Notes: generated by a model not told the origin, from the letters alone. Positions 28,139 through 46,564 are shown, counted from the stretch's first letter. The stretch is 64,000 bases of DNA from Ancylobacter sp. (GCF_965229075.1 NZ_CBDDIO010000001.1:1104674-1168673), one strand, 5' to 3'. Program-made: numbers and translations.

Positions 28139-28202
28139 GTCATCGGGACGGACGGAGCGCGGTGCCGATCCGGCGCCAGGTTCGGAACGGATCGCCGATG
28201 AT
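28139..28202. repeat. degenerate nested inverted-repeat element (same style as 6125..6220)
   Basis: Outer inverted repeat TCATCGG (28140-28146) / CCGATGA (28195-28201). Inner inverted repeat CGATCCG (28166-28172) / CGGATCG (28188-28194). It lies immediately upstream of tRNA-Ser. Confidence 0.3.
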
Positions 28203-28225
28203 GTCTGCCGCAACGGCCGATGTCG

Positions 28226-29923: not shown

Positions 29924-29947
29924 GGCGAAGCCTTTCGTGTCAGGCGG

Positions 29948-30229
29948 TCATTCCCCTTGGATCAACTCCTCCAGAATATCCCCGAACCACGCCTCGAAGA
30001 CAGCAATCTCCGCCTCTGTCACCGGAATGTATTCCGGCCAGTCGTCGGTGATGGTCAGGGGGGCGGAGGCTGGGGGCGACCGTGTCCGGCGGCGGGGCGG
30101 CGGCGTCTCCGCGTAGGTGTAGAGATTGTCGGGCAAGCGGCCGGTCGGGAGGCGGCGCGTGGAGTCGAAAGTGGGTGGACGCTCGTATCTGGTCATCCCA
30201 TAGATTGCGATGACAAGGGGCAAGGCCAC
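29948..30229 (-). CDS. small hypothetical protein upstream of the recombinase
   Basis: 93-aa ORF (or 82 aa from ATG 30196) on the same strand, 25 nt upstream of the recombinase. It has no clear RBS and no recognised motif. Confidence 0.3.
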   Translation of the reverse strand: MALPLVIAIYGMTRYERPPTFDSTRRLPTGRLPDNLYTYAETPPPRRRTRSPPASAPLTITDDWPEYIPVTEAEIAVFEAWFGDILEELIQGE

Positions 30230-30508
30230 ATAACCGCTCTGTATCCGGCGATACGCAGCGCTTCTAAGGCCTCTATGGAAGGCCCGAGATATTGCCCTTA
30301 CACTGCGAGGTTAAGAGTCTTGGGAGCCCTGATGGCACTTGAGGAGGCAGGACGTAGGGACTTTCGCTAACGGTCCGAGACCGATCGAACGGTGGTAATG
30401 CTGCCTTAGACAGTCTCTGAAGGGCTGCGTGATTAAGACTTCCGCTCCCCCCGTCATTTCGCCGCACTCGCCGGTGCGGTACCAAAATAGCGCGGCCCTA
30501 GCGGCGCA

Positions 30509-30537
30509 TTGAAACACCTAAGTGCAATAGCTAAATC
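30509..30537 (+). promoter_or_regulatory. candidate sigma70-type promoter for the nuclease-NTPase gene
   Basis: TTGAAA (30509-30514), a 17-nt spacer, then TAAATC (30532-30537), about 100 nt upstream of ATG 30635. Called by eye only. Confidence 0.3.
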
Positions 30538-30634
30538 ACTATCGTACCCAATCTTTTCCATCCTGGGTACGATTGACATTGCACCCCAATGGCCAGCATT
30601 TTTGCCCTACGTTTGTTTGGGGGTGATATCTGGA

Positions 30635-33136
30635 ATGGCCCATGGCGATGACGTTCTGGTGCGGCTGCGCGAAATAATCGATGACGTCAAAGACCGCTCT
30701 CTTAACGAAGCTGATACCCGGCACCGGGTAATCGACTTCGTTTTGCATGACGTTCTCGCGTGGCCGCGCAATCGAACGGCTGTGGAGGAGTATGTCGCCC
30801 CGGGTTATGCCGATTTCGTATTGAAGCGCGCAGATGGGGACCCACTGATTCTCGTAGAGGCCAAACGGGATGGCTCGTATTTCAATCTTCCAAATCCCGT
30901 GAACCAATCCGAAACGTCCGGATATATTTCTATAAAAAAGTTACTAACAGATAACAATATCAAATCTGCGATGCAGCAAGTTCGATTTTACTGTCAAGAT
31001 CTTGGCTGCGAATTCGCGGCCATAACCAATGGGCACGAATGGATATTTTTTAAAACGTTCGAGCGTGGAAAAAAATGGGAAACGTTGCAAGCTTTTGTAG
31101 CGCGAAGCGTGTCTTTCTTTGATATTGAATATACGCGCGCCTATAATTCATTTTCATATACAGCTATTTCAGAAAGCTTTTCACTTCAAACCGTCCTAAA
31201 TAGCTCTCCCCCGCGAGATAGGACAATCTACTACGCGAAAGATCGTATTCCCTCATATTCGCATCCAATTACGGCGAACAAATTAGCTTCTGCTCTACGA
31301 CCTATTGTTAATCATTATTTTGGTGTTATTGAGGATAGCGATACGGAATTTATGGATCGCTGCTATGTATCTCATAGAGACTATCATCATACATTTGATG
31401 GGATGAGGACTTTAATTGAAGACTCCCTTTCACCTTACTTGAAATCGTATGGTGTCCGGCCCTTAGACGAAACCGGAAAGGGCGGGCAACTTGGAGGGCG
31501 TCTGACTAAAAACATCAAACGAGGACGCAAGGGAGAGGTTCTCGTCCTGTTTGGTGGCAAGGGGGCCGGAAAGTCGACATTTATCAAGCGCCTCCTGCAC
31601 CACACGCCTCCGCGCTGGTTGCGCGACCACTCGGTGATTGCGATCGTCGACCTTCTTAAGGTGCCAGAAGAGCCCGAAGTAATTCGTCGAGCGATCTGGG
31701 ACGGGCTCGTCGCCGGCCTTGACACAGAAGGGCTCTTGGCCGCCGACCGAAGCGCTTTGCTGGACAAGCTTTTTACAGATCGCTTCGAGATTGCGTCGCG
31801 CCAGGAACTGTCAGGGCTTTCAAGGGCATCGGACGCGTACAATGCACGCCTTAATGAACTTGTTTCAGGCTGGAAAGCTGATAAAAAATATTGCGCCAAA
31901 CGTCTAATGAATTATTGGAAATGTCAAGACGTTGGACTTATAGTTGTAATCGATAATACTGATCAATATTCTGGCCCAAATCAGGATTTTTGTTTTACTT
32001 CGGCTCAAGAGATTGCTGACGAACTTGAATGCGTCACCTTAATCTCAATGAGAGAAGAGCGGTTTCATAATTCGAAAATCCATGGCCTGCTGGACGCGTT
32101 CCAGAACGCGGGCTTCCACATAAGCTCCCCGAAGCCCGCAGAGGTATTCCGAAAGCGACTGGAGTACGTTGTGTCACTCCTATCGAATTCATCGAGGAAC
32201 GAGGATCTGACAAATGGAGCTCCTGAGGAACTCGTCAATGACTGCATAAAATATCTGAGCATCATTAATCGGGATTTTCATAACGAAAAATCACCTTTGA
32301 ATAATTTTCTTACAGCGTGCGCTCACGGAGATATAAGACTATCTCTTGATCTTTTCAGAGCATTCCTTCTATCAGGGTACACCAATGTCGAAGAAATGCT
32401 CGCCGCTGGAAAATGGAACTTCCTGATACATCAGGTCATAAAACCTGTAATGATACCTACTAGGTATTATTATGACGAAATGTTAAGCGACATACCAAAT
32501 ATATATCAACTACGAGATAACCGCAGAAGTTCACATTTTACCTCAATGCGCATTCTTAGAAAACTCGCGCACAATGTGGAAAGCGGCGTGGCGACGTACC
32601 TATCAATGGCTGAACTGAAGTCGTACTTCTCAGAAACGTTCGCCATGATAGATGACTTCACAAAGAACGTTGATGTTTTGCTGAAACACGGATTCGTAGA
32701 GGCCGACAATCGGCTCGATGTATATTCGACAGATGTCGACCGCATAAAAATAACGGGATACGGCCTGTATATGATAAGTGAACTGGCTTACTCGTTCACG
32801 TATCTTGATCTTATCTGTACGGATTGCGGCGTCTATGACGAGCCTGTCAGTAATTATCTGGTTGAGGCTGCGAAATCTGAGTATGGACTATTTAATCAGA
32901 ATGAGAGATTTGAGCGTGTTAAGTTGCGCCTTGAGAGAGTTGATAGATTCCTGCAGTATCTTGAGAAGGAGGAACGCGAGGAGCGCACCTTTTTTGGATT
33001 GCGCTTTCCGGACGAAGAGCTTTTTACGTTCAAATGTCGTGAGGCATTTAAAGTTGAAAGTGCGCGTGTCGTTGCTAGCGCTACCAAAAATCGCGCAGTC
33101 AATCGACCGCGTAGTCGTCGCGCTCCTGGCCGCTGA
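30635..33136 (+). CDS. PD-(D/E)xK nuclease (HsdR-N/Mrr-like) fused to a P-loop (STAND-like) NTPase with a helical C-terminal domain
   Basis: The N-terminus reads NEADTRHRVIDFVL...YADFVL...LILVEAKRDG...FAAITNGHEWIFF, which is the HSDR_N-type D...ExK nuclease core (D codon 30812, E 30857, K 30863). Walker A is FGGKGAGKST (31553-31579), Walker B is LIVVIDNTDQ (31937-31966), followed by TLISMRE. About 330 aa of C-terminal helical region follow. I prefer ATG 30635 (GGGGGTGA upstream) over the ORF start at 30509. Confidence 0.7.
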   Translation: MAHGDDVLVRLREIIDDVKDRSLNEADTRHRVIDFVLHDVLAWPRNRTAVEEYVAPGYADFVLKRADGDPLILVEAKRDGSYFNLPNPVNQSETSGYISIKKLLTDNNIKSAMQQVRFYCQDLGCEFAAITNGHEWIFFKTFERGKKWETLQAFVARSVSFFDIEYTRAYNSFSYTAISESFSLQTVLNSSPPRDRTIYYAKDRIPSYSHPITANKLASALRPIVNHYFGVIEDSDTEFMDRCYVSHRDYHHTFDGMRTLIEDSLSPYLKSYGVRPLDETGKGGQLGGRLTKNIKRGRKGEVLVLFGGKGAGKSTFIKRLLHHTPPRWLRDHSVIAIVDLLKVPEEPEVIRRAIWDGLVAGLDTEGLLAADRSALLDKLFTDRFEIASRQELSGLSRASDAYNARLNELVSGWKADKKYCAKRLMNYWKCQDVGLIVVIDNTDQYSGPNQDFCFTSAQEIADELECVTLISMREERFHNSKIHGLLDAFQNAGFHISSPKPAEVFRKRLEYVVSLLSNSSRNEDLTNGAPEELVNDCIKYLSIINRDFHNEKSPLNNFLTACAHGDIRLSLDLFRAFLLSGYTNVEEMLAAGKWNFLIHQVIKPVMIPTRYYYDEMLSDIPNIYQLRDNRRSSHFTSMRILRKLAHNVESGVATYLSMAELKSYFSETFAMIDDFTKNVDVLLKHGFVEADNRLDVYSTDVDRIKITGYGLYMISELAYSFTYLDLICTDCGVYDEPVSNYLVEAAKSEYGLFNQNERFERVKLRLERVDRFLQYLEKEEREERTFFGLRFPDEELFTFKCREAFKVESARVVASATKNRAVNRPRSRRAPGR

Positions 33137-33252
33137 TTGTCGAAGCAGTTGCGCCAAAGTATGCTTAAGACTATGATGGCAAGAGCGTTGAGCGGAGCAG
33201 CCGTATTAGATATGGCGCCGGCGGTCCGACTTTTTGCAACGGCTGATTTTGA

Positions 33253-35313
33253 TTATAACCCCAGCCCTCGCGATCTTCCGAGATCCCACTCGATACCGCC
33301 ATCTCCACGCATGACACCGGAAAGGTGGCGGCCGATCTGCTTGTCGAGCACAGGCTGCCAGGGCACCAGCTGGAAGCCGAGCCCGTCTTCCAGCATGGCG
33401 AAGCGACCGGAGACGAGTTGTAGCTGGCGGGTGACAGTGCCGGAGACATATTCGCCGCGACCGGACGGCCGGTAAGTCAAGCCTGTGGACCTGGCGAGGT
33501 CGGCGGCGACGCGCTCCACCTCGCGGCGCTGAAGCCGGTTGAGGAGGTCGGGCGCCTCGATGCCACCGCCCGGCTGCCGCGTGGCGAGTCCCATGTCGAC
33601 GAGTGTGTTACGGCGCTGGTCGACGGCAAGGCTGACATCCAGGCCAAAGCCGTCGGTAGAGCGGGGCGTGGGTGAGATGATCTCCTGATCGAGCCAGGTG
33701 GCGCCCTCGACACCAATCTGCCGGTCGAGCGAGAGCTGCGAGGCGATCCGAATGTTGGGGCCTTCGCCCGCCAGCGCGCGGTCATAGGCGAGGCCGCGCT
33801 CGGGGAGGTTCTTCGGGATGGTCCAGTGCTCCGCATGAACCCGCTCGACATGACCGGCGCGCCGCAGTGCTTCCAGTCGCCGGACATGCGAGCGGATATA
33901 GGCCTCAGCGTCCTTGCCCTGTTCTGTGAAGCGGTCGCGGATGTGGGCGAGGTGCGTGCTCGGGCTATAAATGCCATCCGCGTCCGCGTTTTGTTGGATG
34001 TTCAGATCGACCGCGCGGGGCTGAGTGATCGGCGGCGTCACCTCGACGATCATGCCGCGCTGGAGACCTTCGAGCCTGGCGGCGTCCGGGAACTCGACAT
34101 GGTGGACGCGAGCGTCGATGCCATCGACCACGAGATAGGTAGTCTCGTTCAGGCCGTCTCCGGCCAGTCCCTTGCCCAGCACCCGGCCGGTGAGTGTCTG
34201 CTCCGGCGCGTGCCCATGGCGGACAAATTGGCTGGTGCCGCGCTCGTCGCCGAGGCCATTGTCTTCGATGGCCTGGTGCATGGAGCGGATGACGTCGTTG
34301 CGGGCTTCGATCTCGTTGAGAATCGCTTCCGTGCGTGGCGCGAGGATCCACTCGCCGGGGAGGTCCTCGGTGGCGAGGCCATAACCCTCCAGCTTGCGAA
34401 GCCGGCCGATGAGGAGGTTCTGGTTCTCCCGGATCAGCCGGTTGCCGCTGGTGAAGAGGTCGACGACGCCCTCGCGCTCCTGTTCCTGGATCAAGATACG
34501 ATCCAGCCGGGTAAGGCGCTCTGCCTCGACCTCGGAGGCGAGCTTCTGCTGCAGCTCCACCTCGCTCTGCGGGCCGAGTTCACGGGTGATGATGTCGCTG
34601 GCGCGGTGGCGTATCCCATGGGCGATGTAGTCGCCCGCTATGGTGAGGGTACGTCCCTCATCGGTGACGCCGCGCACCAGCACATGGGTGTGGGGATGGC
34701 CAGTGTTGTGATGATCGACCGCGATCCAGTCGAGCTTGGTACCGAGATCATTCTCCATCTGCCCCATGAGCTCACGCGTGAAGCCTCTGAGGTCGCCGAG
34801 CTCCAGCCCATCTTCCGGCGCGACGATGAAGCGGAACTGGTGGCGGTCCTCGCGTCCGCGCTCCAGGAAAGCTTTGCCATCGGCCACATCCTCGAACGCC
34901 GAATAGCAGCGACCCTTCTGCCGGTCGGGCGTCACACCGTCGCGCTGGAGATAGCGCAGATGGGCGTCGACCGCCTTGGCGGAAGTGCCGACCGTCTTGC
35001 GACCGCCGCGCCCCCGCACGACGCCGAGTTTCACCACCCGCGCCTTAACCACCACGCGGCGAGAGCGGTGTCGTCCACCGGCATCGACCTTCCAGCCGCG
35101 GTCAACACCGGAAAGCGCGCCCGCTGCCCGGACGCCGCGACCGCGGGCGTTGTAACGCCCGCTTCCTTTCCGGCCTGACCAGCCGCCGGCCTCGCGCGCG
35201 GCAATCTCGACCTGGCGCCGGAACGGTAGCGTCGCAAGGCTGCTCTGTCGCATGCCGCGCTGACGAATCCGGCCGGGGCGGACCCTGAACCTGTCGCTGT
35301 TGTCCTGTGCCAT
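33253..35313 (-). CDS. MOB relaxase / mobilization nuclease with DUF3363-like C-terminal domain
   Basis: It has an Arg-rich N-terminus, the relaxase His-triad motif WIAVDHHNTGHPHTHVLVRG, and a long C-terminal extension as in alphaproteobacterial relaxase/DUF3363 proteins. Confidence 0.8.
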   Translation of the reverse strand: MAQDNSDRFRVRPGRIRQRGMRQSSLATLPFRRQVEIAAREAGGWSGRKGSGRYNARGRGVRAAGALSGVDRGWKVDAGGRHRSRRVVVKARVVKLGVVRGRGGRKTVGTSAKAVDAHLRYLQRDGVTPDRQKGRCYSAFEDVADGKAFLERGREDRHQFRFIVAPEDGLELGDLRGFTRELMGQMENDLGTKLDWIAVDHHNTGHPHTHVLVRGVTDEGRTLTIAGDYIAHGIRHRASDIITRELGPQSEVELQQKLASEVEAERLTRLDRILIQEQEREGVVDLFTSGNRLIRENQNLLIGRLRKLEGYGLATEDLPGEWILAPRTEAILNEIEARNDVIRSMHQAIEDNGLGDERGTSQFVRHGHAPEQTLTGRVLGKGLAGDGLNETTYLVVDGIDARVHHVEFPDAARLEGLQRGMIVEVTPPITQPRAVDLNIQQNADADGIYSPSTHLAHIRDRFTEQGKDAEAYIRSHVRRLEALRRAGHVERVHAEHWTIPKNLPERGLAYDRALAGEGPNIRIASQLSLDRQIGVEGATWLDQEIISPTPRSTDGFGLDVSLAVDQRRNTLVDMGLATRQPGGGIEAPDLLNRLQRREVERVAADLARSTGLTYRPSGRGEYVSGTVTRQLQLVSGRFAMLEDGLGFQLVPWQPVLDKQIGRHLSGVMRGDGGIEWDLGRSRGLGL

Positions 35314-35549
35314 GCCGGCACGATGAGGGGCATCACCTTAGAGTATCAAGCGTAGAAAAGGCGAGTTCGCAAAGCAGCGTGAAAAGACCTGCCATGGCGG
35401 GCTAAGGGCGGAGCGCACATTGCGGTTTAGGTCAATCAACCCCAGTCCGATCAGAGCCTTAGATCAACCGACCGGCTTGCCAGCACCCTGCGATTCACGC
35501 TGGGCACCGTACCTCAACCTGCTGAAACCAATGTGCAGACAAACATATA

Positions 35550-35580
35550 ATGTCGCCAGACATTGCGATCGGCAGATCGC
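35550..35580. promoter_or_regulatory. tandem short hairpins in the AT-rich region upstream of the relaxase (candidate oriT or operator)
   Basis: ATGTC-gcca-GACAT (35550-35563) is followed immediately by GCGATC-ggca-GATCGC (35565-35580). They sit in a 650-bp non-coding, AT-richer stretch between the relaxase and RHH genes. Confidence 0.25.
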
Positions 35581-35970
35581 TTTATCTTGCCCTCAATTTC
35601 CTAAGCCTCACTGTCAATAATCTAATTCCGACAATACCCGCCGAATATACTAATAGGTAATGACCGAGAAGACCACGTTCTGGCCAGCGGGAGCCGCTGA
35701 TACGCTGCCGGCACCGAGGCTACCACGACCGCCGTCGGATGCGAGATCAGCGATGCAGTGGATTGACGGTCAAACGCCATTCAAGCGGCAGCCCAACCCG
35801 CGCCGAGGTCTGCACTGGTGATGCCAATGGATGTCCATCGCCGTGCAGAAACCTTGCAGAGAAACCGTCGTCGAACTGCACAGAGGTAGCGGCCTTTTGT
35901 GCACGCGAGCAGCAATGCTGGGAAGCATGAGGTGCTGGCGGTTGATCGTAGAAGTTCGCCGATCTCGGTA

Positions 35971-36159
35971 TCATTTGCCGCGCTTAGGCTCGGTAACCTC
36001 TTGCGATTTTTCGGCGACGGAGATGCCGCGACGCTCGGCATATTCGAGCAACGCAACTTCAATCAAAGCCGTAATGGATCGCCGCTCCGCGTCAGCAAGC
36101 TGGCGCGCCAGCGCGAGTACGTCAGCATCAATGCGGGTAGTGAAGGGCTGTTTCGTCAT
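35971..36159 (-). CDS. ribbon-helix-helix (CopG/Arc/MetJ-type) protein
   Basis: 62 aa from ATG 36159. MTKQPFTTRIDADVLALARQLADAERRSITALIEVALLEYAERR shows a beta-strand followed by two helices. It could be a relaxosome accessory protein or an antitoxin-type regulator. Confidence 0.65.
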   Translation of the reverse strand: MTKQPFTTRIDADVLALARQLADAERRSITALIEVALLEYAERRGISVAEKSQEVTEPKRGK

Positions 36160-36291
36160 CGGCCTTATTGCTTGCGATCCGGCATAGTTCGAGGCAGAGT
36201 CATGCACGTGCAGTGCACGTACAACGGCCGGGGTGAGTGCGCGAACACCCAACCCGGCCTGACCACAACCAAGCTGATTGGAGCTCGGATC

Positions 36292-36957
36292 ATGGCTGAT
36301 TCTGAGATTAGCACGAGTCTGTCCCGGCCATCCCGGAGGGGCGTTCTCTATGCCGTCCTGCTGACGATCGGCGGCACGTCATTCAACAGTTCGTCTGCGG
36401 CGACGCCGCAAGATGACAGCGCAACGGATGCCGCCGTCCTCGCGTGGAAAGGGTGGCGCGCCGCGCATAGGCGCACGCTTGCCCTGTGTCGGAAACAGCA
36501 ACGTCTGGAGTCCGAACTCGTGCGGAAGATCGGCTTTCCACAGGCGGTTCTGGCTGCAGCCGAACTACCGTCACCGGTGCGGATCGCCTCCTTGCGCCAG
36601 TTCGATGAGCTTGCGGGCAATGTTCCGTCGCTTTGCGCGCGGCGCGCCGAAGTCGCGGAGGCGCTGCGCGCACATCAGCAGCGCTGGGACGACGCAGATC
36701 GTGCCATCGGCTACTCCGTCACCCGGCAGGAAGAGGCGGCGGCATCCGCCGATGAAGAGCGCCTGATCGCGGGGCTTTTTGCGGCAAACGCGACGTCTCT
36801 GCGCGGCCTCTCCGCAAAGCTCGACGTGCTGATCGCCGTCGGCGCGGATGGCGCCGAGGGGCGGCATTTCCCGTGGCCCGAACTACGGCGCATCCGCCGG
36901 GATGTTACGCGCTTGATGCAGCTGCAGCGTCACGATGCAGTCGGCTTCACTGCTTGA
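36292..36957 (+). CDS. hypothetical protein with RR-containing leader
   Basis: 221 aa from ATG 36292. It has the N-terminus SRPSRRGVLYAVLLTIGG, then an Ala/Arg-rich helical sequence with no recognised domain. Its 3' end overlaps the convergent HNH gene by 11 nt. Confidence 0.4.
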   Translation: MADSEISTSLSRPSRRGVLYAVLLTIGGTSFNSSSAATPQDDSATDAAVLAWKGWRAAHRRTLALCRKQQRLESELVRKIGFPQAVLAAAELPSPVRIASLRQFDELAGNVPSLCARRAEVAEALRAHQQRWDDADRAIGYSVTRQEEAAASADEERLIAGLFAANATSLRGLSAKLDVLIAVGADGAEGRHFPWPELRRIRRDVTRLMQLQRHDAVGFTA

Positions 36958-37846
36958 AGCAGTGCTCGCGATGCCAGCGCAGGAAGTGGGGATGCGGACG
37001 CTCGAACGCCCGTTGCGGGGCAATTGCGCGCCCGCTCCGATTGATGAAGGCGCGCACGCCGTCGGGATCGTTGGCGTGCCGGGAGATCAGCACGTCGAGA
37101 TCGTCCGTCAGACTGATCAGCCCCCGGTCAAACATCCAGTGTGCCGTACCTGACAAAGCCAATCCATTGCTGACGATATCCGGACCGTTCGCCTGAACCG
37201 GCTGAATATGCGCCGCCGCGACCTCGGCCCGCCCGCCGCCATTGATGAGTTTCAAGCCACTGATGGCGCACCGCTCATCATAGGCGCGCAGCACGATGCG
37301 GCGGAAGACACGATCCCGCACCATCCGCGACGAAAGATAGCTGACGCGCTCCCTGCTCTCCTCGTACGCGAACGGAGCCTGTTCTTCGCTGAATCCGTTC
37401 GGACGCACATCGGTATCCGTGCGCGGAAGCAGCGGCTCGCGGTCATCGAGGCCTCGCGCGACGATGCGGTCGAAATCACCCGCGGAGAGCGGTCGAACCG
37501 CAGCCTGGGCACGGCCGGAAATCCGCCCATCTTCGTTCAGAACGCCACGCTCAATGACGCCACCATCACCGCCAAAGGGCACCGGGCTGACGAAGTCGAG
37601 ATAACTACCCGGCTCGATCAGCGCGAGAAACATGCCCGGCGCCGTCGGATCGGGAACAACGCGCTCCACCTTCGCGATGGCGAAGTAACCCCGCGTGTCC
37701 GCCACCTTCCGCGGCTCGTAATAGACGATCCAATCGCCAACGCAGGCCTCGACGCGGCCGAGATACTGCCGAGGGAACTGGTACCGCTCAGCCGGGCTAT
37801 CGTCATAGATCGAGTCTGTACGATGGATGAAAACGCCGAATCCCAT
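36947..37846 (-). CDS. HNH endonuclease (HNH_2-type) with an N-terminal PUA-like reader domain; likely modification-dependent restriction enzyme
   Basis: The C-terminus reads CAISGLKL......AAHIQPV...GPD.VSNGLALSGTAHWMFDRGLISL, an HNH_2 core. The N-terminal ~130 aa (GDWIVYYEPRK...RGYFAIAKVERVVPDP) looks like a small beta-barrel. Confidence 0.75.
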   Translation of the reverse strand: MGFGVFIHRTDSIYDDSPAERYQFPRQYLGRVEACVGDWIVYYEPRKVADTRGYFAIAKVERVVPDPTAPGMFLALIEPGSYLDFVSPVPFGGDGGVIERGVLNEDGRISGRAQAAVRPLSAGDFDRIVARGLDDREPLLPRTDTDVRPNGFSEEQAPFAYEESRERVSYLSSRMVRDRVFRRIVLRAYDERCAISGLKLINGGGRAEVAAAHIQPVQANGPDIVSNGLALSGTAHWMFDRGLISLTDDLDVLISRHANDPDGVRAFINRSGRAIAPQRAFERPHPHFLRWHREHCFKQ

Positions 37847-38283
37847 GACACGATCTTACCGCGCTATCCCGCGCTGGCGAGCGCGTAAGGAGCCGTTCGC
37901 TCCAGGAGACAGTACGCTGTGGCGAGGACGAATGCCCGGTTTGGGGCCGGTAGCCGACTGTCCGCTATTGGGGATCTCAAACGAGAAGCGGACATATCGC
38001 CAAATAATACCCGAGGCCGGAGCTGACCCTTTGCTGACATTGGGAGAGTCCGCTCTGCGTACATAAGCCTATCCTCAAGTGTAGTTTCAAGTTGTGGCTC
38101 CACCCCTCAAAACCCGCCTGCAGTCTTGAAAGTAACCTTAGTCTGGCTATCTCTGCTTCCACCTCAGTCCTGGCCGTTCGTAGTTCGGACAAGCGAGTTT
38201 GCAACAGCCTGAGCTGATCCGGCCACTTCTTGGTTTCGAAGGGAGTGTGGCGGCGACTGAAGTTGGATGGGCGTCGCGTGACG

Positions 38284-39441
38284 CTATCGGTTCCAATCGA
38301 CGGCGTTTAGCTGCCGGTACAGGGTTGCCCCGTAGTCCTTGTCTACCTGATGGGCGAAAGCGATTAGCCCCTCGATATGGCGCCGCATGCCAATGGTCGA
38401 GGCGAACCCCCGCTTCGCTCTGTGGGCGGCGGCGCCGACCTTCGGGTTCGCGAGCGCGAAAAGATGAGTTTCGACGTTGTTGCGGAACTCGCGCGTCAGC
38501 CTCGGCTGCTCCCGGTCGACCAGCACGCCGAGCAGAACCTTTCGGGCACCCGGCGGGACGATCGTCGTCTTTTCGCGATTGTTGATCAGCCCGAACTTCA
38601 CCAGCTCATGCTCCACCGCCTTCGCCAGATGCATTGCCTCTCCCCTGGCCGAGGCGTTGCGGCGGGAAAAGGCGAGATCGTCTGCGTACCGCGTGTAGGT
38701 CCAACCGCCCCGCGCTGCCAAGGCTTCGATGCGGCGATCCAGCGGCCACATAACGAGGTTCGCGAGCATTGGGCTCGTCGGAGCGCCCTGCGGCAGATGC
38801 CCTTGCCGATGTCGCCGGTATGGGAGACCCGTGTCCCCGCGCCCTTCCTGCAGCCTGACGTCACTGGTCTGATGTTGCGCCAGGCGCGTGCAGACACGCG
38901 CCATCTGGAATGAAAGCAACGCCCCGTAACCGAGCGACCGGAACACCCGATAAACCCGACGCTCGGGGATGGACTCGAAAAAGTGGCGGACATCCATCTT
39001 CACCAACCACTTCGCTTCGACATGCCGCTTCGCTGCACCGACCAAGTCGCGACCAGGCGCGAACGCGTAGCTTGCGGGGTGCGGCGGGACGGCGTTCAGG
39101 ATGTTCTGTGCGATCCAGCGCTGCGCCCGCATGAGGTCCTGGTGGGGCACGCATATCGTCCGGTAGCGCCGTGGTGGCGCCGCCACGCCGTTGGGCGTAC
39201 CGCGCTTCTTCACCCGGAACACGCGGTATGAGTCCTCCTTGCGGAAGGCGACGGCCTGCAAGGCCTCGATCGGTACTCCGGCCAAATGTGCGAGGTGTCC
39301 TAGGGTCAGGATAACTGGAAGGTCGGGATTGGTCCGCTTGATCGCGTCTGCAGCGGCTTCGGCGGCGGCGATCAGACCCTCGCTTCGCCCTTCAGCGCGC
39401 GCCCCCTCGCGGAACCGTTGAGAACTCCACGGGTGCTTCAT
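38284..39441 (-). CDS. reverse transcriptase, retron-type
   Basis: It has the RT motifs LPQGAPTSPMLANL and WTYTRYADDLAFS (YADD codons at 38677-38688). It also has YRVFRVKKRG...RYRTICVPHQDLMRAQRWI and GLINNREKT...ARKVLLGVLV, which are collinear with retron RTs such as Ec86. Confidence 0.8.
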   Translation of the reverse strand: MKHPWSSQRFREGARAEGRSEGLIAAAEAAADAIKRTNPDLPVILTLGHLAHLAGVPIEALQAVAFRKEDSYRVFRVKKRGTPNGVAAPPRRYRTICVPHQDLMRAQRWIAQNILNAVPPHPASYAFAPGRDLVGAAKRHVEAKWLVKMDVRHFFESIPERRVYRVFRSLGYGALLSFQMARVCTRLAQHQTSDVRLQEGRGDTGLPYRRHRQGHLPQGAPTSPMLANLVMWPLDRRIEALAARGGWTYTRYADDLAFSRRNASARGEAMHLAKAVEHELVKFGLINNREKTTIVPPGARKVLLGVLVDREQPRLTREFRNNVETHLFALANPKVGAAAHRAKRGFASTIGMRRHIEGLIAFAHQVDKDYGATLYRQLNAVDWNR

Positions 39442-39607
39442 CTACTTGAGTCCAGCCCTGGTGGGCGTCGCTTCCACCATCGAACCGAGCCCCCGAGGAG
39501 GTTCCCGATAGGGAACGATGGCGGAAGCGACGTGGACCTGCGATCAGCAGCTCTAACAGTGGCGACCGGAAGCCCGGTCCCCCTCGACAATGAGTTCGTA
39601 CCCATCA
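39442..39607 (-). ncRNA. candidate retron msr-msd non-coding RNA (structured spacer upstream of the RT)
   Basis: On the minus-strand transcript there is a short hairpin GACCGG-GCUU-CCGGUC (39579-39564). It is followed by a 17-bp stem (39532-39516 pairing with 39482-39466) that encloses a GUUCCC-UAUC-GGGAAC hairpin. The single non-Watson-Crick pair is G-U only in the minus-strand sense. I did not identify a1/a2 repeats or the branching G. Confidence 0.35.
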
Positions 39608-40894
39608 TCACGGCCGCCCAAAAGGACGGCGGGTGCTAGACGAAGCCCGCGGAGTTCTCAGTTCGGACGGATAATATGGAACGGTAGAGGTTGCAATACT
39701 CGGCCGTTTTCGCTCAAGCCGCCGCGCAGCTTCCAGCATTTGATGCCCGGCGTCTGTGAGGCGCCCTTGTTTGGTGATCAACTTTGCGCGCAGCGCTCTC
39801 AGCACGATCTCCATCACGTCCGGCGTGGTCATTCCGGTCCGCTCAGAGAGCGCGATTTCCTTTCCGCGCCACCAGCGTCCACGCATGGCGGACAAGACGA
39901 GAACCGTCGCAGCATCCGCCTCAGCCAACCCCGGCGTGATCCGAATGCCCATGCTGGCCGCCGCGGAGGTGATGACGTCGCTCATCCGACGGAGGCCGAA
40001 TGCCGGGCGCAGGTCGTCGGGCGCCGGCCCGTCGTAGAGCGCGCGCCAGGTGCTAGTCGACTTATGGAGCAGCGCCGGCGTGTTATTGGGGAGGCGGTAG
40101 TTGAATGCCGCCAGGGCGGAGGTGTTTCCGAAGCCCCACCGGCTCGCACCGCGTCCCGTATCCGGGCCGTAGCGGTTAATCAGTGAAAACCAGCGGTCCG
40201 CTTGGCGCCAGTCGCCTGCCTTTACGATGGTCGGTGCGACGTGCTCGACACGCACATCCGGCCGCAGGCGGTGGCGCCGAACGCTCGTGATGCCGGCGTC
40301 TGTCCCTGCCGCGGCCACAACGCAAAAATCAATCCATCCTCGGGAGCGCCACGCACGGATGGTGGGGACCGCCCACAAGGCGTCGAGCATCGACCTCACC
40401 CGGCTGCCGGATCCGATGAAGTCCGTGACCAGCGCTATAGTCCCTGCGGGCGCGGTCTTGCCGCGCAGCAGGTTGGGCCCTGGGTGGTTCATAAAGATGG
40501 CCGGCCGCGCCTCCTTAGCCTGAGAGATGACAAAGCCGACGAGGCCCTCGCTGCCGACCCGCGTCCCGCCACGAAGGGGTTTGACTGCCGGAGGTCCAGC
40601 CCGACCAACGGCGCGGTAATGGCGTCGGCCCTTCGCATCTAAAGTTACGGTGCTCTGGAAGAAGGCTGCTTGCCCCATCTCGCGCTCGGCGTAGAGCGCG
40701 ACCCGACGTCGGAAACCGGAGCGACCGTCCGCCAGCGCGTAGAGTTGAGAGCGGATCGCTGCGCTGACCTGCTCTTCGTTTAGCAAGAGCATGGCGTCCA
40801 GCAACGCCGCAGCGTCGACCGCGTCGGCCGCCAGGAACTGCCGTAGCCATTGCTGCGACGTCTCGTAAGACGACAGCGGCGCTCGCGAGCTCAA
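39608..40894 (-). CDS. phosphoribosyltransferase-like protein with C-terminal winged-helix domain
   Basis: It has a PRPP-loop-like motif GTIALVTDFIGSGSRVRSMLDAL and a C-terminal wHTH-like segment MTTPDVMEIVLRALRAKLITKQGRLTDAGHQMLE. The preferred start is TTG 40894 (AAGGGA 7 nt upstream), which overlaps the helicase TGA. An alternative ATG is at 40792. Confidence 0.5.
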   Translation of the reverse strand: MSSRAPLSSYETSQQWLRQFLAADAVDAAALLDAMLLLNEEQVSAAIRSQLYALADGRSGFRRRVALYAEREMGQAAFFQSTVTLDAKGRRHYRAVGRAGPPAVKPLRGGTRVGSEGLVGFVISQAKEARPAIFMNHPGPNLLRGKTAPAGTIALVTDFIGSGSRVRSMLDALWAVPTIRAWRSRGWIDFCVVAAAGTDAGITSVRRHRLRPDVRVEHVAPTIVKAGDWRQADRWFSLINRYGPDTGRGASRWGFGNTSALAAFNYRLPNNTPALLHKSTSTWRALYDGPAPDDLRPAFGLRRMSDVITSAAASMGIRITPGLAEADAATVLVLSAMRGRWWRGKEIALSERTGMTTPDVMEIVLRALRAKLITKQGRLTDAGHQMLEAARRLERKRPSIATSTVPYYPSELRTPRASSSTRRPFGRP

Positions 40895-42642
40895 ATGGCA
40901 ATCCCTTCTACGATAGCTTCGCCGAACCACGCCTGGACCTTGCCCATCGCCACGGGCGAAAGCTGCTGGGTGAACAGCAGCGCCAACCGCTTCTTCGGCC
41001 TGGAGCACGCCACGTAGAAGAGATTGCGGTTGCGCTCGAACATCTCTGCGCGGGCCGCCGGCACGCCATTGACCGCCAGCTCCAGCATCTCCCCAAAATT
41101 GTACTGGTTCCACCCGCGTCCGATCACGACGAGCACATTCTCAAATTCCTGTCCCTTGACCCCGTGCTTCGTCTCGAACGGCGAGTGTCCGCAGAGATAG
41201 GCGCGAAGGGCTTTGATCTCGGCATACTGCACGCCATGCAGGGCCTCTGTCTCCGTTAGGTAGCGCGGCATGGGTTCGCCAGCGTCCGGATCAAAGGCGC
41301 GCAGGTCGCGCTCACGGTCTGCGACGGCATCGGGGGGCCGCGGGCGCCGGGTCTGCATCAGGTGACCGATAACCTCCCCGACGGTCCCGTTGGCCCTCAG
41401 CTGATCCAGCGCCTGAAAGGACGCCCCCCACGCCGCCTTGTCCGCCGTTCGACGCAGGTGCGGGGCGGTGCCCAGGACATCGAACATCTCGCCAAACCGC
41501 CGGGCCGCAAATGCATCGCAAGCGGGCTCCAGCACATCGACCAGGTAGGCGATGTGTGGATTCTCCTTCTTGGTGAAGGCGTCATTGAACTGGAAGACGC
41601 CTGGGAGGCTGGCGTAGCCCTGCTCAGCCGCCAACACCCGGTGGGTCAGCATCAGGACCTTGGTCCGGCTGGCGTCGAAGTCCCAACCATCCGCGACCAG
41701 CCGGGTTTTGACCCGGTCCAACGCCTGGTGAGCCACGGGCCCAGGCAGATCGCCACCCCAGTGGGCGCCGCCCTGTCGCTGTCCCACCCAACCGTTGGAA
41801 TGGAACACCCTGACCGAACCAGCCACAGTCGGATCGTCCACGAACTGCGGCAGCTCGGGTCGCATCCGGTTCAAGCAATCCACTACGACCTGCACAGACC
41901 GGAAATTGGCCTCCTTGCCGATCTCCTTGACCGCGGGATGTTCAAGCTTCCCGCATCCACCGTAGATTTTCTGCCAGTGGTCGCCGAAGAAGCCAAACTG
42001 CGGCGCGCCCGCCACGCCGAGGAAGTGGGCCTTGATCGCCTCCACCCAATCGGCGTCAGTATCCTGATACTCGTCGACCAGAATGACCGGATAGAGTTCC
42101 GACATCCGCTTCCGGAACTTGGCGTTCTCCATGAAGCGGATGGTCAGTGGCAGGATGTCGTCGTGGTGCAGGGACAGAACCCCGTCCCTGATGGACCGAT
42201 GGCCAAGGGTATACTCCACCGTGCGACCACCGATGCCGCCGACTTCGGCCAGACGGTCCTGCCATGTCGGGAGTTCGCTGACATAGGTGCGCAGATGCGC
42301 CTGCAGACCGTTGATTAGCGACCAACAGAACGCGTGATTGGTCTCGCAAAACACCGCCGGGTGGCGGTCGGTTCGCGCCTCGATCTCATCCTTGGCCACG
42401 TTGGTGAAGGTGATGCAGGCAACCTTCTGACTGCGGCGAACGAAAACCCGGCTCCGCTTCTCGATCAGCCAACCCAGCGCTTTCACGAGCGTGTAGGTCT
42501 TACCGGCGCCGGCGCCGGCTTCCAGTCTGAAGCTCTCGCCGTTTTCCAAACAGCCATAGACGGCTTCAAGGGCGACGCGGCTTGCCCTCTGTGCAGGAGT
42601 CTCGCCATCAGGCACCGGTCTGCTCCTCAGCCGTTGCCTCAT
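40891..42642 (-). CDS. UvrD/PcrA-like SF1 helicase (GajB-like)
   Basis: It has Walker A EAGAGAGKTYTL, motif II ILVDEYQDTD, then VKGQEFENVLVV and NLFYVACSRPKKRLALL. Its start overlaps the end of the OLD gene by 35 nt. Confidence 0.85.
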   Translation of the reverse strand: MRQRLRSRPVPDGETPAQRASRVALEAVYGCLENGESFRLEAGAGAGKTYTLVKALGWLIEKRSRVFVRRSQKVACITFTNVAKDEIEARTDRHPAVFCETNHAFCWSLINGLQAHLRTYVSELPTWQDRLAEVGGIGGRTVEYTLGHRSIRDGVLSLHHDDILPLTIRFMENAKFRKRMSELYPVILVDEYQDTDADWVEAIKAHFLGVAGAPQFGFFGDHWQKIYGGCGKLEHPAVKEIGKEANFRSVQVVVDCLNRMRPELPQFVDDPTVAGSVRVFHSNGWVGQRQGGAHWGGDLPGPVAHQALDRVKTRLVADGWDFDASRTKVLMLTHRVLAAEQGYASLPGVFQFNDAFTKKENPHIAYLVDVLEPACDAFAARRFGEMFDVLGTAPHLRRTADKAAWGASFQALDQLRANGTVGEVIGHLMQTRRPRPPDAVADRERDLRAFDPDAGEPMPRYLTETEALHGVQYAEIKALRAYLCGHSPFETKHGVKGQEFENVLVVIGRGWNQYNFGEMLELAVNGVPAARAEMFERNRNLFYVACSRPKKRLALLFTQQLSPVAMGKVQAWFGEAIVEGIAI

Positions 42643-44677
42643 CGACCGCCGCCATTACGACGGCCAATGCCTGGTCTGGCACAATGGCGTCGCTCGCCGC
42701 CAACCATCGAATGCCCTCCACGAGGTATCGAGGTGCCGTCCAGTTCGTGTCGGCGATCGAGAATTCGATGGCAAAGTCGGACTTCTTATAGCCGCCAGCC
42801 AGCGTCCTGGCTTCGAGTTCGCGGGCCGGGGCGTCGGCGCCCACCAAGCCGAACTTTTCGCCGTTGGCCAAGATAAACGCATCTTCAAGTGTGCGTCCAC
42901 AGGGGCCGTTGGCGGCCTCGGGACATTGGTAAGCCAGACGTTTCAGGCCTTTAATCTTGTCGACGTCGGTCTTACCGGCGAAGCCGGCCAGGGGATAAGG
43001 CGCGTCGCCAGCGAACCAGGATTTCAAGCACACATTGCTGGTGGTCACGCCCTGGTGCACCGCGCAGGCGGTGCCGCCTGCCGCGACCACGGCGTCGAGG
43101 TCGGTGACGATCAAGGTCCGCAATTCTAGGAAGTCCAGGAGATCCACGAAGATGTGGGCGTAGGCGCCGCCGACCTCCAGAGTGGTGATGAACTGGCTCG
43201 ACAGTTTCGGCGCCTCCGGCTCCATAGCCTCCAGCTTGCTGACCACCACTGGTAGGATCATCCGTTCGCCGAGACCTTCGACCAGTATCGCCTTGTCCGC
43301 GAAGAATAGGTCGCAACGGGTCAGCGTCAGATATTTGTGTAGGAATTGGCGGTCGGGCGCGGGCTTGTCGGCCATGCCCTTGCTTAGGTCCTTGACGCGG
43401 GTCATCCGGACGCCCGGAGCCGCACCTGGCGTGTCGACCGACAGGAAGTACCTGATGGCCTCGAACCCTGCCTCGTTCGCGACATGCGACGAGTGGGTGG
43501 AGACCACGAATTGCACTGGCCACGGGATGCCGTCCTCGGCGCCCTGGACCAACTGCTGGGCGATCTTCGCAAGCTGACGAATGAAGACCTCCTGCATCTG
43601 GGGATGCAAGTGGGCCTCCGGCTCCTCTATGAAGATCAGGTGTACTCCAGCCGCGGTCGAGTCCGCCCGGAAGGATTTGTAGAAACCGACCAGTTGCAGG
43701 AGGATGAAGATCAGGTTCCTGATCCCCAGCCCGTTGTAGGACTCGGGAAGGGAAACTCCGCTGTTGCCAGCGTAGCGAACGCGCGTGAAGTTGGACAGCA
43801 GGCGCCGGACGTCCAGCGTCGTTTCCGTGTGCAGTTCCTGTCCGCCAAGACCGGGGTATCCGAAGCTCTGCAAGGTCGGCATCAGCTTCTTCAGTTCGGA
43901 GCCGACGTTGGCGTCGATCTGCTGCTGAATGTCCTGTACCGCGGCTCCCAGGGCATCGGCCACAAGCTTGTCGCCGTGGTCAGCCTGATCCGAACTCGCG
44001 GTGGAGAACAGGTTCTCCAGAACCTTAGCCAGCACGTCGGACTCGCGAGACGTCACGTCGTCGAGGCCGCGTTGGGCGTTGATGAAGCCCGGTTTCACGA
44101 GATGGCGCAGCGCGGCGTTCGTCAGCTCGCGACGGTTAGCCGGGTCGGTGGGGTCTTGCGCCCAGATCTTCGCTGTGAACATCTTCGGCACGCGTTCGCG
44201 CAAAACCTTGAAGACCGCTATGCGGGCTGCGTCGTCCAACTCTCCGGCGGGCTGATCAGCGAAGAAGGCGGCGACGGCGCCATCCTTCAACTCGTAGCGA
44301 ATGGCTGCTATCGCAGTGGTGCACGCTGGGTCGAGGTCGATGACGAATGGGCTGAGCGGCCCCAGCTCCGGGTCGGCCGCGTCGTATTCAAAATGGACAT
44401 CTAGTTCGATCGACGGAAGCAATGCGCGAACGGCTTGGTCTCCAGCCCCGTCACCATGCGCTCTCAGGGACGCGCAAAACCCATCGTAGCTCGCGCTCGA
44501 GAAGTCCTCGATCTGGAAGATGGGCGTACCCTCGCCGAGCAAGCGCCGCATGATTTCCGACAGAGAGGTCTTGCCGCTGTTGTTGCGTCCCACGATCAGG
44601 GTGGTTTTGGGATCGAGCGCAAGGGTGACGTCAGCAAGCAGCCGGAAGTTTTTGATCCTGACCTGGCTAATGTGCAC
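42608..44677 (-). CDS. OLD-family ATP-dependent endonuclease (ABC-type ATPase + Toprim; GajA-like)
   Basis: It has Walker A GRNNSGKTS, Walker B/D-loop LIFIEEPEAHLHPQ, a Toprim Glu in AILVEGLGERMILP and the DxD in LIVTDLDAV. The GTG start at 44677 is preceded by GAGGGGA. Confidence 0.85.
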   Translation of the reverse strand: MHISQVRIKNFRLLADVTLALDPKTTLIVGRNNSGKTSLSEIMRRLLGEGTPIFQIEDFSSASYDGFCASLRAHGDGAGDQAVRALLPSIELDVHFEYDAADPELGPLSPFVIDLDPACTTAIAAIRYELKDGAVAAFFADQPAGELDDAARIAVFKVLRERVPKMFTAKIWAQDPTDPANRRELTNAALRHLVKPGFINAQRGLDDVTSRESDVLAKVLENLFSTASSDQADHGDKLVADALGAAVQDIQQQIDANVGSELKKLMPTLQSFGYPGLGGQELHTETTLDVRRLLSNFTRVRYAGNSGVSLPESYNGLGIRNLIFILLQLVGFYKSFRADSTAAGVHLIFIEEPEAHLHPQMQEVFIRQLAKIAQQLVQGAEDGIPWPVQFVVSTHSSHVANEAGFEAIRYFLSVDTPGAAPGVRMTRVKDLSKGMADKPAPDRQFLHKYLTLTRCDLFFADKAILVEGLGERMILPVVVSKLEAMEPEAPKLSSQFITTLEVGGAYAHIFVDLLDFLELRTLIVTDLDAVVAAGGTACAVHQGVTTSNVCLKSWFAGDAPYPLAGFAGKTDVDKIKGLKRLAYQCPEAANGPCGRTLEDAFILANGEKFGLVGADAPARELEARTLAGGYKKSDFAIEFSIADTNWTAPRYLVEGIRWLAASDAIVPDQALAVVMAAVDEATAEEQTGA

Positions 44678-44715
44678 GGCGTCCCCTCTAAGCAGCGGAC
44701 GTCTCTGCGTCCTAT

Positions 44716-44731
44716 TAGTGTGCCGACACTA
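44716..44731. promoter_or_regulatory. perfect 6-4-6 palindrome upstream of the OLD gene (candidate operator)
   Basis: TAGTGT-gccg-ACACTA lies 39-54 nt upstream of the GTG start of the first gene of the cluster. Confidence 0.3.
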
Positions 44732-45397
44732 CCTGAAAGAGTGCTGTGGTGCAGCTTGCGTCTCGGGGGAAATTCAACGATCACGTTCCGGCCACAGCAC
44801 GACCTTCGCCGATACCGGCATCGGGCCGCTGCAGCGTGGCGTTAGCAGCCTGTAGTTCTCGCGCGAGTGCCACCGGCTGTTCGGCTGCGGCATCCCATTC
44901 ACGAGCCCCTCTTGGCCTGGTCGGCCGGGTCAGACGGCCGCTGTAGAGTTACGGATGGTCGGCGTCGATGTGTGTCGCGAAGACGTGATCAAACCGGTCG
45001 GCGAAAATCTCTTGGACGACGCGTCGCGCGGGACGGCGCGAATAACGATTTTTTGCAGGTCACGACGGGCGGCGCAGGGATTGGCTCAACGTCCGCATTC
45101 TGCCCCTAAGCCAATGTCTTTTCATGGCGCAACCATGACCTCCAAGGCGGAAAGAACCCACGTCTGCTCTCAGGAATCTGCAAATCCGATTTCTACGGCC
45201 GAGATGGCGGCGCAAAGCGGATATCCCTGAAAGGCGGCGAGGGACAGGGACGGGCCAATGCGCGTCATAGGGTTATAGCGAACACATAGTTCTCTTCTTG
45301 GTCGCTCGCGGCCCGCCACTTTCACCCCGCCCGCCTTCAACCCTGGCACAATGCTGCGCCTCGTCGGACGGGCCGGTCCTGCCATTCTCGCAAACAG

Positions 45398-45429
45398 AAA
45401 GCCCGGAACCGTCTCCGGTACCGGGCTTT
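45398..45429 (-). terminator. rho-independent terminator downstream of minE
   Basis: AAAGCCCGG...CCGGGCTTT stem with T-rich runs on both strands, 54 nt downstream of the minE stop. Confidence 0.6.
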
Positions 45430-45482
45430 GATTTTCTCGGTGACAGGATTGGTCGCTGACGGGCGCTGCCGTCCCTGCCGCG

Positions 45483-45755
45483 TCAGGCGGCGCGGCTGAT
45501 CGCGAGATTGAGCTCGCCGCGCACCTCGACCTCGATTTCGAGGATCGACATCGGCGTCCCGCGCTCGAGGCGGACCTTCACATTGTCCTGCTCGCAGGGC
45601 ACATGCCGGGCCACGACGGCGAGGATATCCTCGCGCAGACGCGACAGCAGGTCGTCCCCGCCCACCACCTGGCGCTCATGGGACAGCAGAATCTGCAGCC
45701 GTTCCCGCGCCTGCGGGGCGGTACCCTGCGAGAAAAGGCGCTTCCACAAGGTCAT
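45483..45755 (-). CDS. minE: cell division topological specificity factor MinE
   Basis: 90 aa with the typical MinE sequence (ARERLQILLSHER...LREDILAVVARHV...). The start overlaps the minD stop. Confidence 0.9.
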   Translation of the reverse strand: MTLWKRLFSQGTAPQARERLQILLSHERQVVGGDDLLSRLREDILAVVARHVPCEQDNVKVRLERGTPMSILEIEVEVRGELNLAISRAA

Positions 45756-46564
45756 GCCGCCCTCCGCAGGAGCTTGCTGAACAGGCCGCCACGCGCACGC
45801 GGCGTTTCCATGGCGATGTTCTCGCCCTTCAGACGCAGCGCCGCGTCGTGATAGGCGCGGGCCGGGGCGCTGTTGGGGTCGTGGATCGAGACCGGAACGC
45901 CCATATTCGACGCCTTCAGCACGTCCGGGCTCTCCGGCACGATGCCGAGCAGCGGCAGCGACAGGATTTCCAGCACGTCCTCGGTCTTCAGCATGTCGCC
46001 ACGCGCCGCGCGGACGGGATCGTAGCGGGTGAGCAGAAGGCGCTTGTCCACCGTCTCGCCGCGCTCGGCCCGCAGCGTCTTGGCGTCGAGAATGCCGACG
46101 ATGCGGTCGCTGTCGCGCACCGAGGAGACTTCCGGGTTGGTGACGACGATGGCGATCTCGGCGTGACGCATGGCCAGCGTCGCGCCGCGCTCGATACCGG
46201 CGGGACTGTCGCAGATCACCCAGTCGAAATGCTGCGACAGCATGCCGATGACGCGGTCGACGCCTTCCTCGGTCAGGGCGTCCTTGTCGCGGGTCTGCGA
46301 GGCCGGCAGCAGGAACAGCGATTCCAGCCGCTTGTCCTTGATCAGCGCCTGCGGCAGGCGGGCATCGCCCTGGATGACGTTGACGAAATCGTACACGACC
46401 CGCCGCTCCGCCCCCATGATGAGGTCGAGATTGCGCAGCCCCACGTCGAAATCGACGACGACGACCTTATCGCCGGTGCGGGCCAGGGCCGCGCCGATGG
46501 CGGCGGTCGTCGTCGTCTTGCCGACCCCGCCCTTTCCCGACGTGACGGTGATGATCTTGGCCAT
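45752..46564 (-). CDS. minD: septum site-determining ATPase MinD
   Basis: It has the deviant Walker A (TSGKGGVGKTTTTA) and is a full-length, 270-aa MinD-type sequence. Confidence 0.95.
   Translation of the reverse strand: MAKIITVTSGKGGVGKTTTTAAIGAALARTGDKVVVVDFDVGLRNLDLIMGAERRVVYDFVNVIQGDARLPQALIKDKRLESLFLLPASQTRDKDALTEEGVDRVIGMLSQHFDWVICDSPAGIERGATLAMRHAEIAIVVTNPEVSSVRDSDRIVGILDAKTLRAERGETVDKRLLLTRYDPVRAARGDMLKTEDVLEILSLPLLGIVPESPDVLKASNMGVPVSIHDPNSAPARAYHDAALRLKGENIAMETPRARGGLFSKLLRRAA

Follow-up and report, generated by a model that had tools for sequence, protein, structure and literature searches.

The 166-nt spacer between the stop codon of an effector gene (39610-39608) and the start codon of a reverse transcriptase (RT) gene is very probably the core of the ncRNA of a type III-A3-like retron, an anti-phage system made up of this ncRNA, the RT and a PRTase-wHTH effector. 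The locus lies on the minus strand of a 64,000-nt stretch of DNA, referred to here as the window, whose numbering is used throughout. The element is an ordinary further member of the described and experimentally characterised type III-A3 (Retron-Eco11-like), the choice of A3 over A4 or A5 resting on effector motifs and ncRNA anatomy and not on reference trees. A retron is expected cargo for a defence island, and this one implies no new mechanism. A preliminary description, made by a model that read the sequence without database searches, had measured the spacer at the same 166 nt and proposed that it held a retron msr-msd upstream of the RT. That identification agrees with the protein context, with the covariation of the RNA helices, with an independent covariance model (CM) and with the published anatomy of Retron-Eco11, and it indicates that a reading of raw sequence can flag a retron template RNA correctly.

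Reverse transcriptase and effector genes

The genes on either side of the spacer encode the two protein components of the retron:

39441-38284, minus strand: retron RT, 385 aa, with YADD at residues 252-255 (PADLOC RT_III-A, 1.4e-166; Pfam RVT_1, 6e-22)
40894-39608, minus strand: PRTase-wHTH effector, 428 aa from the TTG at 40894 (PADLOC PRTase_III-A, 5.3e-100)

The top PADLOC matches of the RT are retron RT models throughout, and the NCBIfam model retron_St85_RT scores it at 175 bits, under the 235-bit cutoff. The open reading frame of the effector spans 41113-39608, with TTG 40894 as its likely start; the gene calls for the effectors of relatives are 426-428 aa long. In the numbering of the long ORF, Pfam places PRTase-CE at residues 225-359 and wHTH-PRTase_assc at 405-486. 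The protein has the motifs IALVTDFIGSGSR (the TDFIGSG PRPP loop), G254-x14-PNNTP and YYPSELRTP, the last at residues 407-415, and these are motifs of effector cluster 67_3. For comparison we used 80 genome loci encoding relatives of the RT with 38-74% identity; the effector gene lies directly upstream of the RT gene in 78 of them.

Extent and fold of the ncRNA

The complete element was delimited by MFE folding, by homologous loci and by the CM:

39661-39418, minus strand: whole retron ncRNA (msr-msd with a1/a2), 244 nt

The preliminary description was right that the spacer is structured, but the limits it drew do not hold, as the element runs past the 166 nt on both sides and into both flanking genes, where it takes in the 3' end of the gene for the PRTase-wHTH effector as well as RT codons 1-8. 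The msr, which had been placed within the spacer, begins inside the effector gene. This architecture, upstream of the RT, is common to 73 distinct homologous loci.

The sense fold of the 244-nt element has a free energy of -141.1 kcal/mol (z = -8.7), a value that none of 200 shuffled sequences equalled. The antisense strand of the element folds at -118.8 kcal/mol (z = -6.1), which leaves the sense fold 22 kcal/mol the more stable. A minus-strand fold of 39720-39430 (291 nt), of the kind proposed in the preliminary description, gave z = -3.8 against dinucleotide shuffles. The first hint of a terminal a1/a2 stem came from the MFE fold, in which sequence upstream of the spacer was paired with the start of the RT gene.

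The a1/a2 stem and the predicted branching G

Folding and covariation together define the two arms of the stem, and the nucleotide that follows the first arm is the predicted branch point:

39660-39637, minus strand: a1, the 5' arm, in the last effector codons (LRTPRASS); from the MFE fold and covariation
39444-39419, minus strand: a2, the 3' arm, lying over RT codons 1-8 including the start codon; A39434 and C39433 form a 2-nt bulge
39636, minus strand: predicted branching G, nt 26 of the ncRNA, in a conserved UCUAG directly 3' of a1

In the MFE structure the outer arm of the stem has 14 bp and the inner arm 10 bp, and the 2-nt bulge lies between them. The same pairing can be followed through the homologous loci, where 12 nt starting from (C/U)UGAG, some 205-250 nt upstream of the RT, find their complement in 12 nt ending in CUCA within RT codons 5-8. 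The complementarity holds at 10-12 of the 12 positions in 79 of the 80 loci, and its sequence varies by locus. The number of sequences available for the analysis of covariation, all drawn from these 80 loci, ranged from 14 to 69 per helix. For a1/a2 we scored fixed-register extracts of 13 nt from the outer arm and 9 nt from the inner arm per side. Among 69 distinct sequences 87.8% of cells are paired, a share that drops to 34-44% in controls with the partner shifted by 1-3 columns, and compensatory changes are seen in 14 of the 22 pairs; none of 500 shuffles matched the observed values, in a control that ignores relatedness. A 6-bp pairing of CUUGAG with CUCAAG (39718-39713 and 39450-39445), offered earlier as the best candidate for a1/a2, was dropped in favour of this covarying 24-bp pairing of 39660-39637 with 39444-39419.

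Both arms fall in coding sequence, a1 at the end of the effector gene and a2 at the beginning of the RT gene. Their pairing in the RNA constrains both gene ends, the codons of which covary as a result. At the amino-acid level the effector end and RT codons 5-8 occur in the combinations R-T-P/W-S-S-Q, R-A-P/W-R-P-Q and R-I/V-P/W-D-P/S-Q.

G39636 is the predicted branching G, a prediction drawn from sequence and from analogy with known retrons. A U-A/G-G trinucleotide follows the a1 stem in all 73 loci examined, at nt 22-31 and mostly at nt 25-27 of the ncRNA.

The long-range a1/a2 pairing, which joins the ends of two genes, belongs to a multi-helix fold and covaries over 69 sequences, also argues against a generic structured intergenic element, whether a terminator or attenuator, a REP-like palindrome or a small-protein gene (57-aa ORF, 39611-39438). 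Such an element would suit a G+C-rich region with an open frame, and an antisense strand that folds well too (z = -6.1). However, the G+C content means that an open frame in the spacer carries no information, and relatives have 1-2-nt indels in the loops that would be intolerable to a coding frame. No terminator-like site was found in the element, and its linkage to a retron RT is strict. We regard the chance of a generic element as negligible.

Structure of the msr and msd

The remaining parts of the retron ncRNA, between a1 and a2, are as follows:

39630-39613, minus strand: msr stem-loop 1, GCCGUCC-UUUU-GGGCGGC; RNAalifold columns 35-41/48-54, compensatory changes in 6 of 7 pairs
39609-39586, minus strand: msr stem-loop 2, 10 bp with loop ACGA; RNAalifold columns 59-68/73-82, compensatory changes in 9 of 10 pairs
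39582-39561, minus strand: msr stem-loop 3; RNAalifold columns 87-95/100-108, compensatory changes in the six inner pairs
39554-39550, minus strand: conserved single-stranded AGAGC motif between msr and msd
39545-39445, minus strand: predicted reverse-transcribed template (msd), its extent set by analogy with the 101-nt msdDNA of Retron-Eco11
39532-39466, minus strand: long msd stem-loop, the DSLb equivalent, 67 nt, with a 17-bp basal stem (39532-39516 with 39482-39466)
39515-39502 and 39501-39490, minus strand: two inner hairpins of the long msd stem-loop
39466-39455, minus strand: short msd hairpin, the DSLa equivalent, GCCC-ACCA-GGGC, 12 nt; from the MFE fold

A MAFFT alignment of 24 sequences, analysed with RNAalifold, recovered the a1/a2 arms and the three msr stem-loops, with compensatory changes in 27 of the 43 predicted pairs. 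[quoted passage not shown] Stem-loop 3 includes the short hairpin GACCGG-GCUU-CCGGUC, which had been noticed from the sequence and does lie at 39579-39564 on the minus strand, and it forms the structured core of the independent CM. Within the AGAGC motif, GAGC is invariant both in this alignment and in an alignment of 14 sequences; reverse transcription is likely to end in the zone of this motif.

The long msd stem is formed by CGUCGCUUCCGCCAUCG (39532-39516) and CGAUGGUGGAAGCGACG (39482-39466), and its sole G.U pair is G39522-U39476; the stem thus matches the 17-bp helix of the preliminary description, and the RT ATG (39441) likewise follows 24 nt past it. The enclosed stretch is 33 nt long, as had been counted (39515-39483), but the hairpin within it is UUCCC-UAUC-GGGAA and not the GUUCCC-UAUC-GGGAAC that had been read there: the leading G of the latter is G39516, the final base of the 5' arm of the long stem. 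The full-length MAFFT alignment with RNAalifold missed the msd stem because the msd is hypervariable across clades, and the stem was recovered by a sub-clade alignment together with folds of individual sequences. Alignment of homologous loci, another check that had been suggested, gave compensatory changes at 8 of the 17 pairs and 89.5% paired cells among 14 sub-clade sequences. A long hairpin of variable sequence occupies the msd position in every locus folded, and individual folds place a short G+C hairpin before (U)CAAAG-UAG in nearly all loci.

The preliminary description had also taken the single G.U pair, which would be A.C on the other strand, as a sign that the fold is intact only in the sense orientation of the RT. 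We do not retain this argument, as the pair is neither a selected feature nor a general one. In the homologous locus L081, whose RT is 92% identical, the same position is A.C in the RNA and G.T in the cDNA; most relatives have a mismatch at the pair next to the G.U; and folding is required of the msDNA as well, whose sequence is that of the plus strand. The neighbouring tenth pair of the stem is mismatched (C.C or A.C) in 11 of 14 close relatives. It is C-G in the window, beside the G.U (39523/39475 and 39522/39476, columns 31/82 and 32/81 of the 14-sequence alignment), and the stem is unusually perfect here.

By analogy with known retrons, the msDNA is predicted to have the plus-strand sequence and to begin near 39445; the msDNA itself, its branch point and the ends of the cDNA at this locus all stand as predictions. 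When 39445-39548 of the plus strand is folded as DNA, the free energy is -26.9 kcal/mol (z = -3.6). The msDNA stem-loop of about 65-70 nt that was first proposed corresponds well to the 67-nt hairpin, but on the analogy with Retron-Eco11 the whole msDNA would be about 100 nt long and would contain the second, short hairpin, which that proposal left out.

Covariance model and database scans

An independent line of evidence comes from a CM for which 44 ncRNAs of distant relatives only (RT identity of at most 48%) were used, each represented by its first 125 nt. It has one significant match in the 64 kb of the window, a full-length match at 39661-39539 on the minus strand with 34.7 bits and E = 3.3e-8; the runner-up match, with E = 0.05, is the antisense of a2. 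Scanning with covariance models had been recommended at the outset, and the outcome differs between sources: this CM from distant family members matches, whereas an Rfam cmscan of 38000-41000 with E up to 10 returned no match inside the element. Rfam apparently has no model for this class of retron ncRNA.

Rfam matches outside the element (CRISPR-DR10 at 40551-40585, Guanidine-III and sR4) were set aside as chance matches. The CRISPR-DR10 match is on the plus strand, opposite to and within the effector gene, and its 23.4 bits (E = 0.04) fall short of the gathering score; as a repeat array is absent, it is probably due to chance. A promoter scan found no sigma-70-like site. The negative results from Rfam and from the promoter scan are uninformative for this family or this host.

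The extended C-terminus of the effector

The effector ORF adds 13 residues after YYPSELRTP, reading through a1, the branching G and stem-loop 1 (39661-39608). Its stop codon comes after stem-loop 1, 30 nt further downstream than that of Retron-Eco11. In most relatives the stop is found 2-7 residues after LR, within nt 13-30 of the ncRNA, and for most of them this is a position inside a1. The stop is a UAG that contains the predicted branching G in 13 loci, and in 24 loci it is a UGA just after the branching-G UAG.

In Retron-Eco11 the tyrosines of the C-terminal peptide are needed for defence (PMC12746101). As that peptide is terminal and required there and is extended here, effector function could be altered, and the 13 extra residues might mark a decaying or inactive copy, in which the ncRNA folds but no functional msDNA-effector complex is made. 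We consider this very improbable. The RT is full length with its YADD motif, the effector motifs are all intact, and the read-through is kept, with intact genes, in a sub-clade of relatives (L001-L004, L016-L019 and L025). The ncRNA of L081 differs from that of the window at 8 nt, and the differences are structure-neutral: they are loop positions, single positions of helical pairs, or part of an A-U pair of stem-loop 3 that is G-C in L081.

Comparison with characterised retrons

Retron-Eco11 is an experimentally characterised type III-A3 system whose ncRNA overlaps the 3' end of the effector gene and the 5' end of the RT gene (Nucleic Acids Res 2025, PMC12746101). The type III-A3-like retron in the window resembles it, as judged by that published description, in the order of effector, ncRNA and RT on one strand and in an ncRNA that overlaps both genes. 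The inverted repeat of Retron-Eco11 comprises 25 bp, 14 in the outer and 11 in the inner part, with two bulged nt (PMC12746101); the corresponding stem in the window has 14 + 10 bp, also with a 2-nt bulge. [quoted passage not shown] The branching G of Retron-Eco11 is rG28, a G-to-C change of which kills defence, and its msr has three stem-loops (PMC12746101); the predicted branching G in the window is nt 26, and the msr again has three stem-loops. The 101-nt msdDNA of Retron-Eco11 contains a DSLa of 13 nt and a DSLb of 69 nt with an 18-bp basal stem (PMC12746101), to be compared with msd hairpins of 12 and 67 nt and a 17-bp stem here.

The likeness extends to the effector. That of Retron-Eco11 carries the PRPP loop VVILTDTIGSGNQ, the motif Gx14PNNxP and a C-terminal peptide YYPxxLRxx (PMC12746101), and the protein in the window is likewise a fusion of a PRTase-like domain and a wHTH with a TDxIGSG PRPP loop, Gx14PNNxP and YYPxxLRxx, the last followed here by 13 further residues. 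The hosts differ, as Retron-Eco11 is from E. coli and the window is from a high-GC host, with its best relatives in Alphaproteobacteria.

Type III retrons are defined by a PRTase-like effector, and types A3-A5 have a fused winged helix (Mestre et al. 2020, PMC7736814). Type III-A3 combines a clade-9 RT, protein cluster 67_3 and ncRNA structure class IIIA3; A4 and A5 have fused effectors as well, and their ncRNA is given as 'nd' (PMC7736814). The locus agrees with the type III-A of that classification in its PRTase with a C-terminal winged helix, in terminal inverted repeats enclosing an msr, which has 1-3 hairpins in that type, and a long msd stem-loop, and in the fact that PADLOC III-A models are the best matches for both proteins.

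The system also has features in common with Retron-Eco1/Ec86 (type II-A3), namely an a1/a2 stem, a branching G and an msd hairpin, together with the arrangement in which an RT-msDNA complex restrains an effector of the nucleotide-metabolism type that has a C-terminal wHTH and a tail peptide. The effector of Retron-Eco1/Ec86 is NDT-like and not PRTase-like, and its gene order, a1/a2 length and msr architecture differ from those of the window. The a1/a2 stem of Ec86 is about 12 bp long.

One locus of E. coli DETEC-S792 (NZ_CP116067.1, 2118896-2121543), retrieved with a Pectobacterium relative as query, was considered as a candidate for Retron-Eco11 and rejected; it is a different III-A retron with DDSIGSG and no YYP tail. 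This PRTase-type retron lies beside a relaxase gene, and its effector is annotated merely as a hypothetical protein.

The a1/a2 stem, the branching G and the limits of msr and msd are now supplied for an alphaproteobacterial-type III-A3 retron, the branch point and the msd ends as predictions. The 73 distinct ncRNAs indicate that the Retron-Eco11 architecture holds down to 38% RT identity. The anatomy can serve for annotation of the locus, for tests of msDNA production and for turning the 67-nt msd hairpin into an editing-donor scaffold, which has a precedent in Eco11.

Proposed mechanism

Defence by Retron-Eco11 needs all three components as well as RT catalysis, the branching G and the effector motifs (PMC12746101). 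Binding of its effector needs msDNA, and its triggers are the phage helicases UvsW and D10 (PMC12746101). From general retron biochemistry, Retron-Eco11 and Ec86 we infer the following course of events for the locus in the window. The RT would bind the folded RNA and prime from the 2'-OH of G39636, and the msd would be copied from about 39445 to about 39545, yielding a branched RNA-DNA molecule (msDNA) of about 100 nt, the DNA part of which would fold into the two hairpins. The RT and msDNA would then keep the PRTase-wHTH effector inactive in a ternary complex. A phage factor, the counterpart of the DNA helicases that act on Eco11, would upset the complex and release a toxic activity, leading to abortive infection.

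The Gabija neighbour

The retron is the downstream part of a run of four co-oriented minus-strand genes encoding GajA, GajB, the effector and the RT, in which a complete Gabija system lies directly upstream of the effector:

44677-42608, minus strand: GajA, OLD-family ATPase/TOPRIM (PADLOC, 6e-275)
42642-40891, minus strand: GajB, UvrD-like helicase (PADLOC, 1e-250)

The stop codon of gajB overlaps the TTG start codon of the effector gene in the sequence TTGA (40894-40891). The identical TTGA junction recurs in L081 (L081:3-1160), where GajB is 89% identical, and in two relatives from Phenylobacterium and Caulobacter (L001 and L002) a divergent Gabija with 31-34% identity is found 6 nt upstream of the effector gene (L001:1815-5533). 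These junctions, together with the triggering of Eco11 by helicases, are what one would expect of a composite four-gene GajA-GajB-effector-ncRNA-RT operon system, in which the role of the ncRNA and msDNA would be tied to the GajB helicase. The wider distribution of the genes argues otherwise. Neither effector nor RT was found in any of 62 metagenomic loci that encode GajB relatives of 56-69% identity and extend 1.5 kb or more downstream, a complete adjacent GajA-GajB pair is present in just 2 of the 80 retron genome loci (L001 and L002), and the close relatives L082-L084 adjoin other defence genes.

As the linkage of GajB and retron is not conserved, coupling of the two systems was largely rejected. 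It is very improbable that the retron, captured into a Gabija operon, is co-regulated with Gabija or functionally coupled to it beyond co-location; if true, this would mean, for example, a helicase-sensing retron that guards or cooperates with a helicase-nuclease system. The composite four-gene system is slightly less probable still. We read Gabija as a defence-island neighbour with operon capture and not as part of the type III-A3-like retron.

Wider genomic context

Around the retron and Gabija genes the G+C content is reduced to 51-65%, compared with 68-71% in the flanks. This stretch, at about 28-46 kb of the window (about 28200-46000), also holds the following features:

28232-28321, plus strand: tRNA-Ser
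29923-28226, minus strand: large serine recombinase ORF, the 3' end of which overlaps tRNA-Ser
30509-33136, plus strand: 875-aa AAA/HSDR_N-like protein, in the part with 51% G+C
35313-33253, minus strand: relaxase
37846-36947, minus strand: HNH endonuclease, downstream of the RT (PADLOC HNH, 4.7e-20)

A megablast of 38284-44677 against plasmids gave no match. The stretch is probably a mobilisable genomic island with defence cargo that includes the retron and Gabija. The HNH endonuclease has a resemblance to phosphorothioated-DNA-binding restriction endonucleases (NCBIfam, 1.6e-29, under the cutoff), and its gene is possibly another one for defence.
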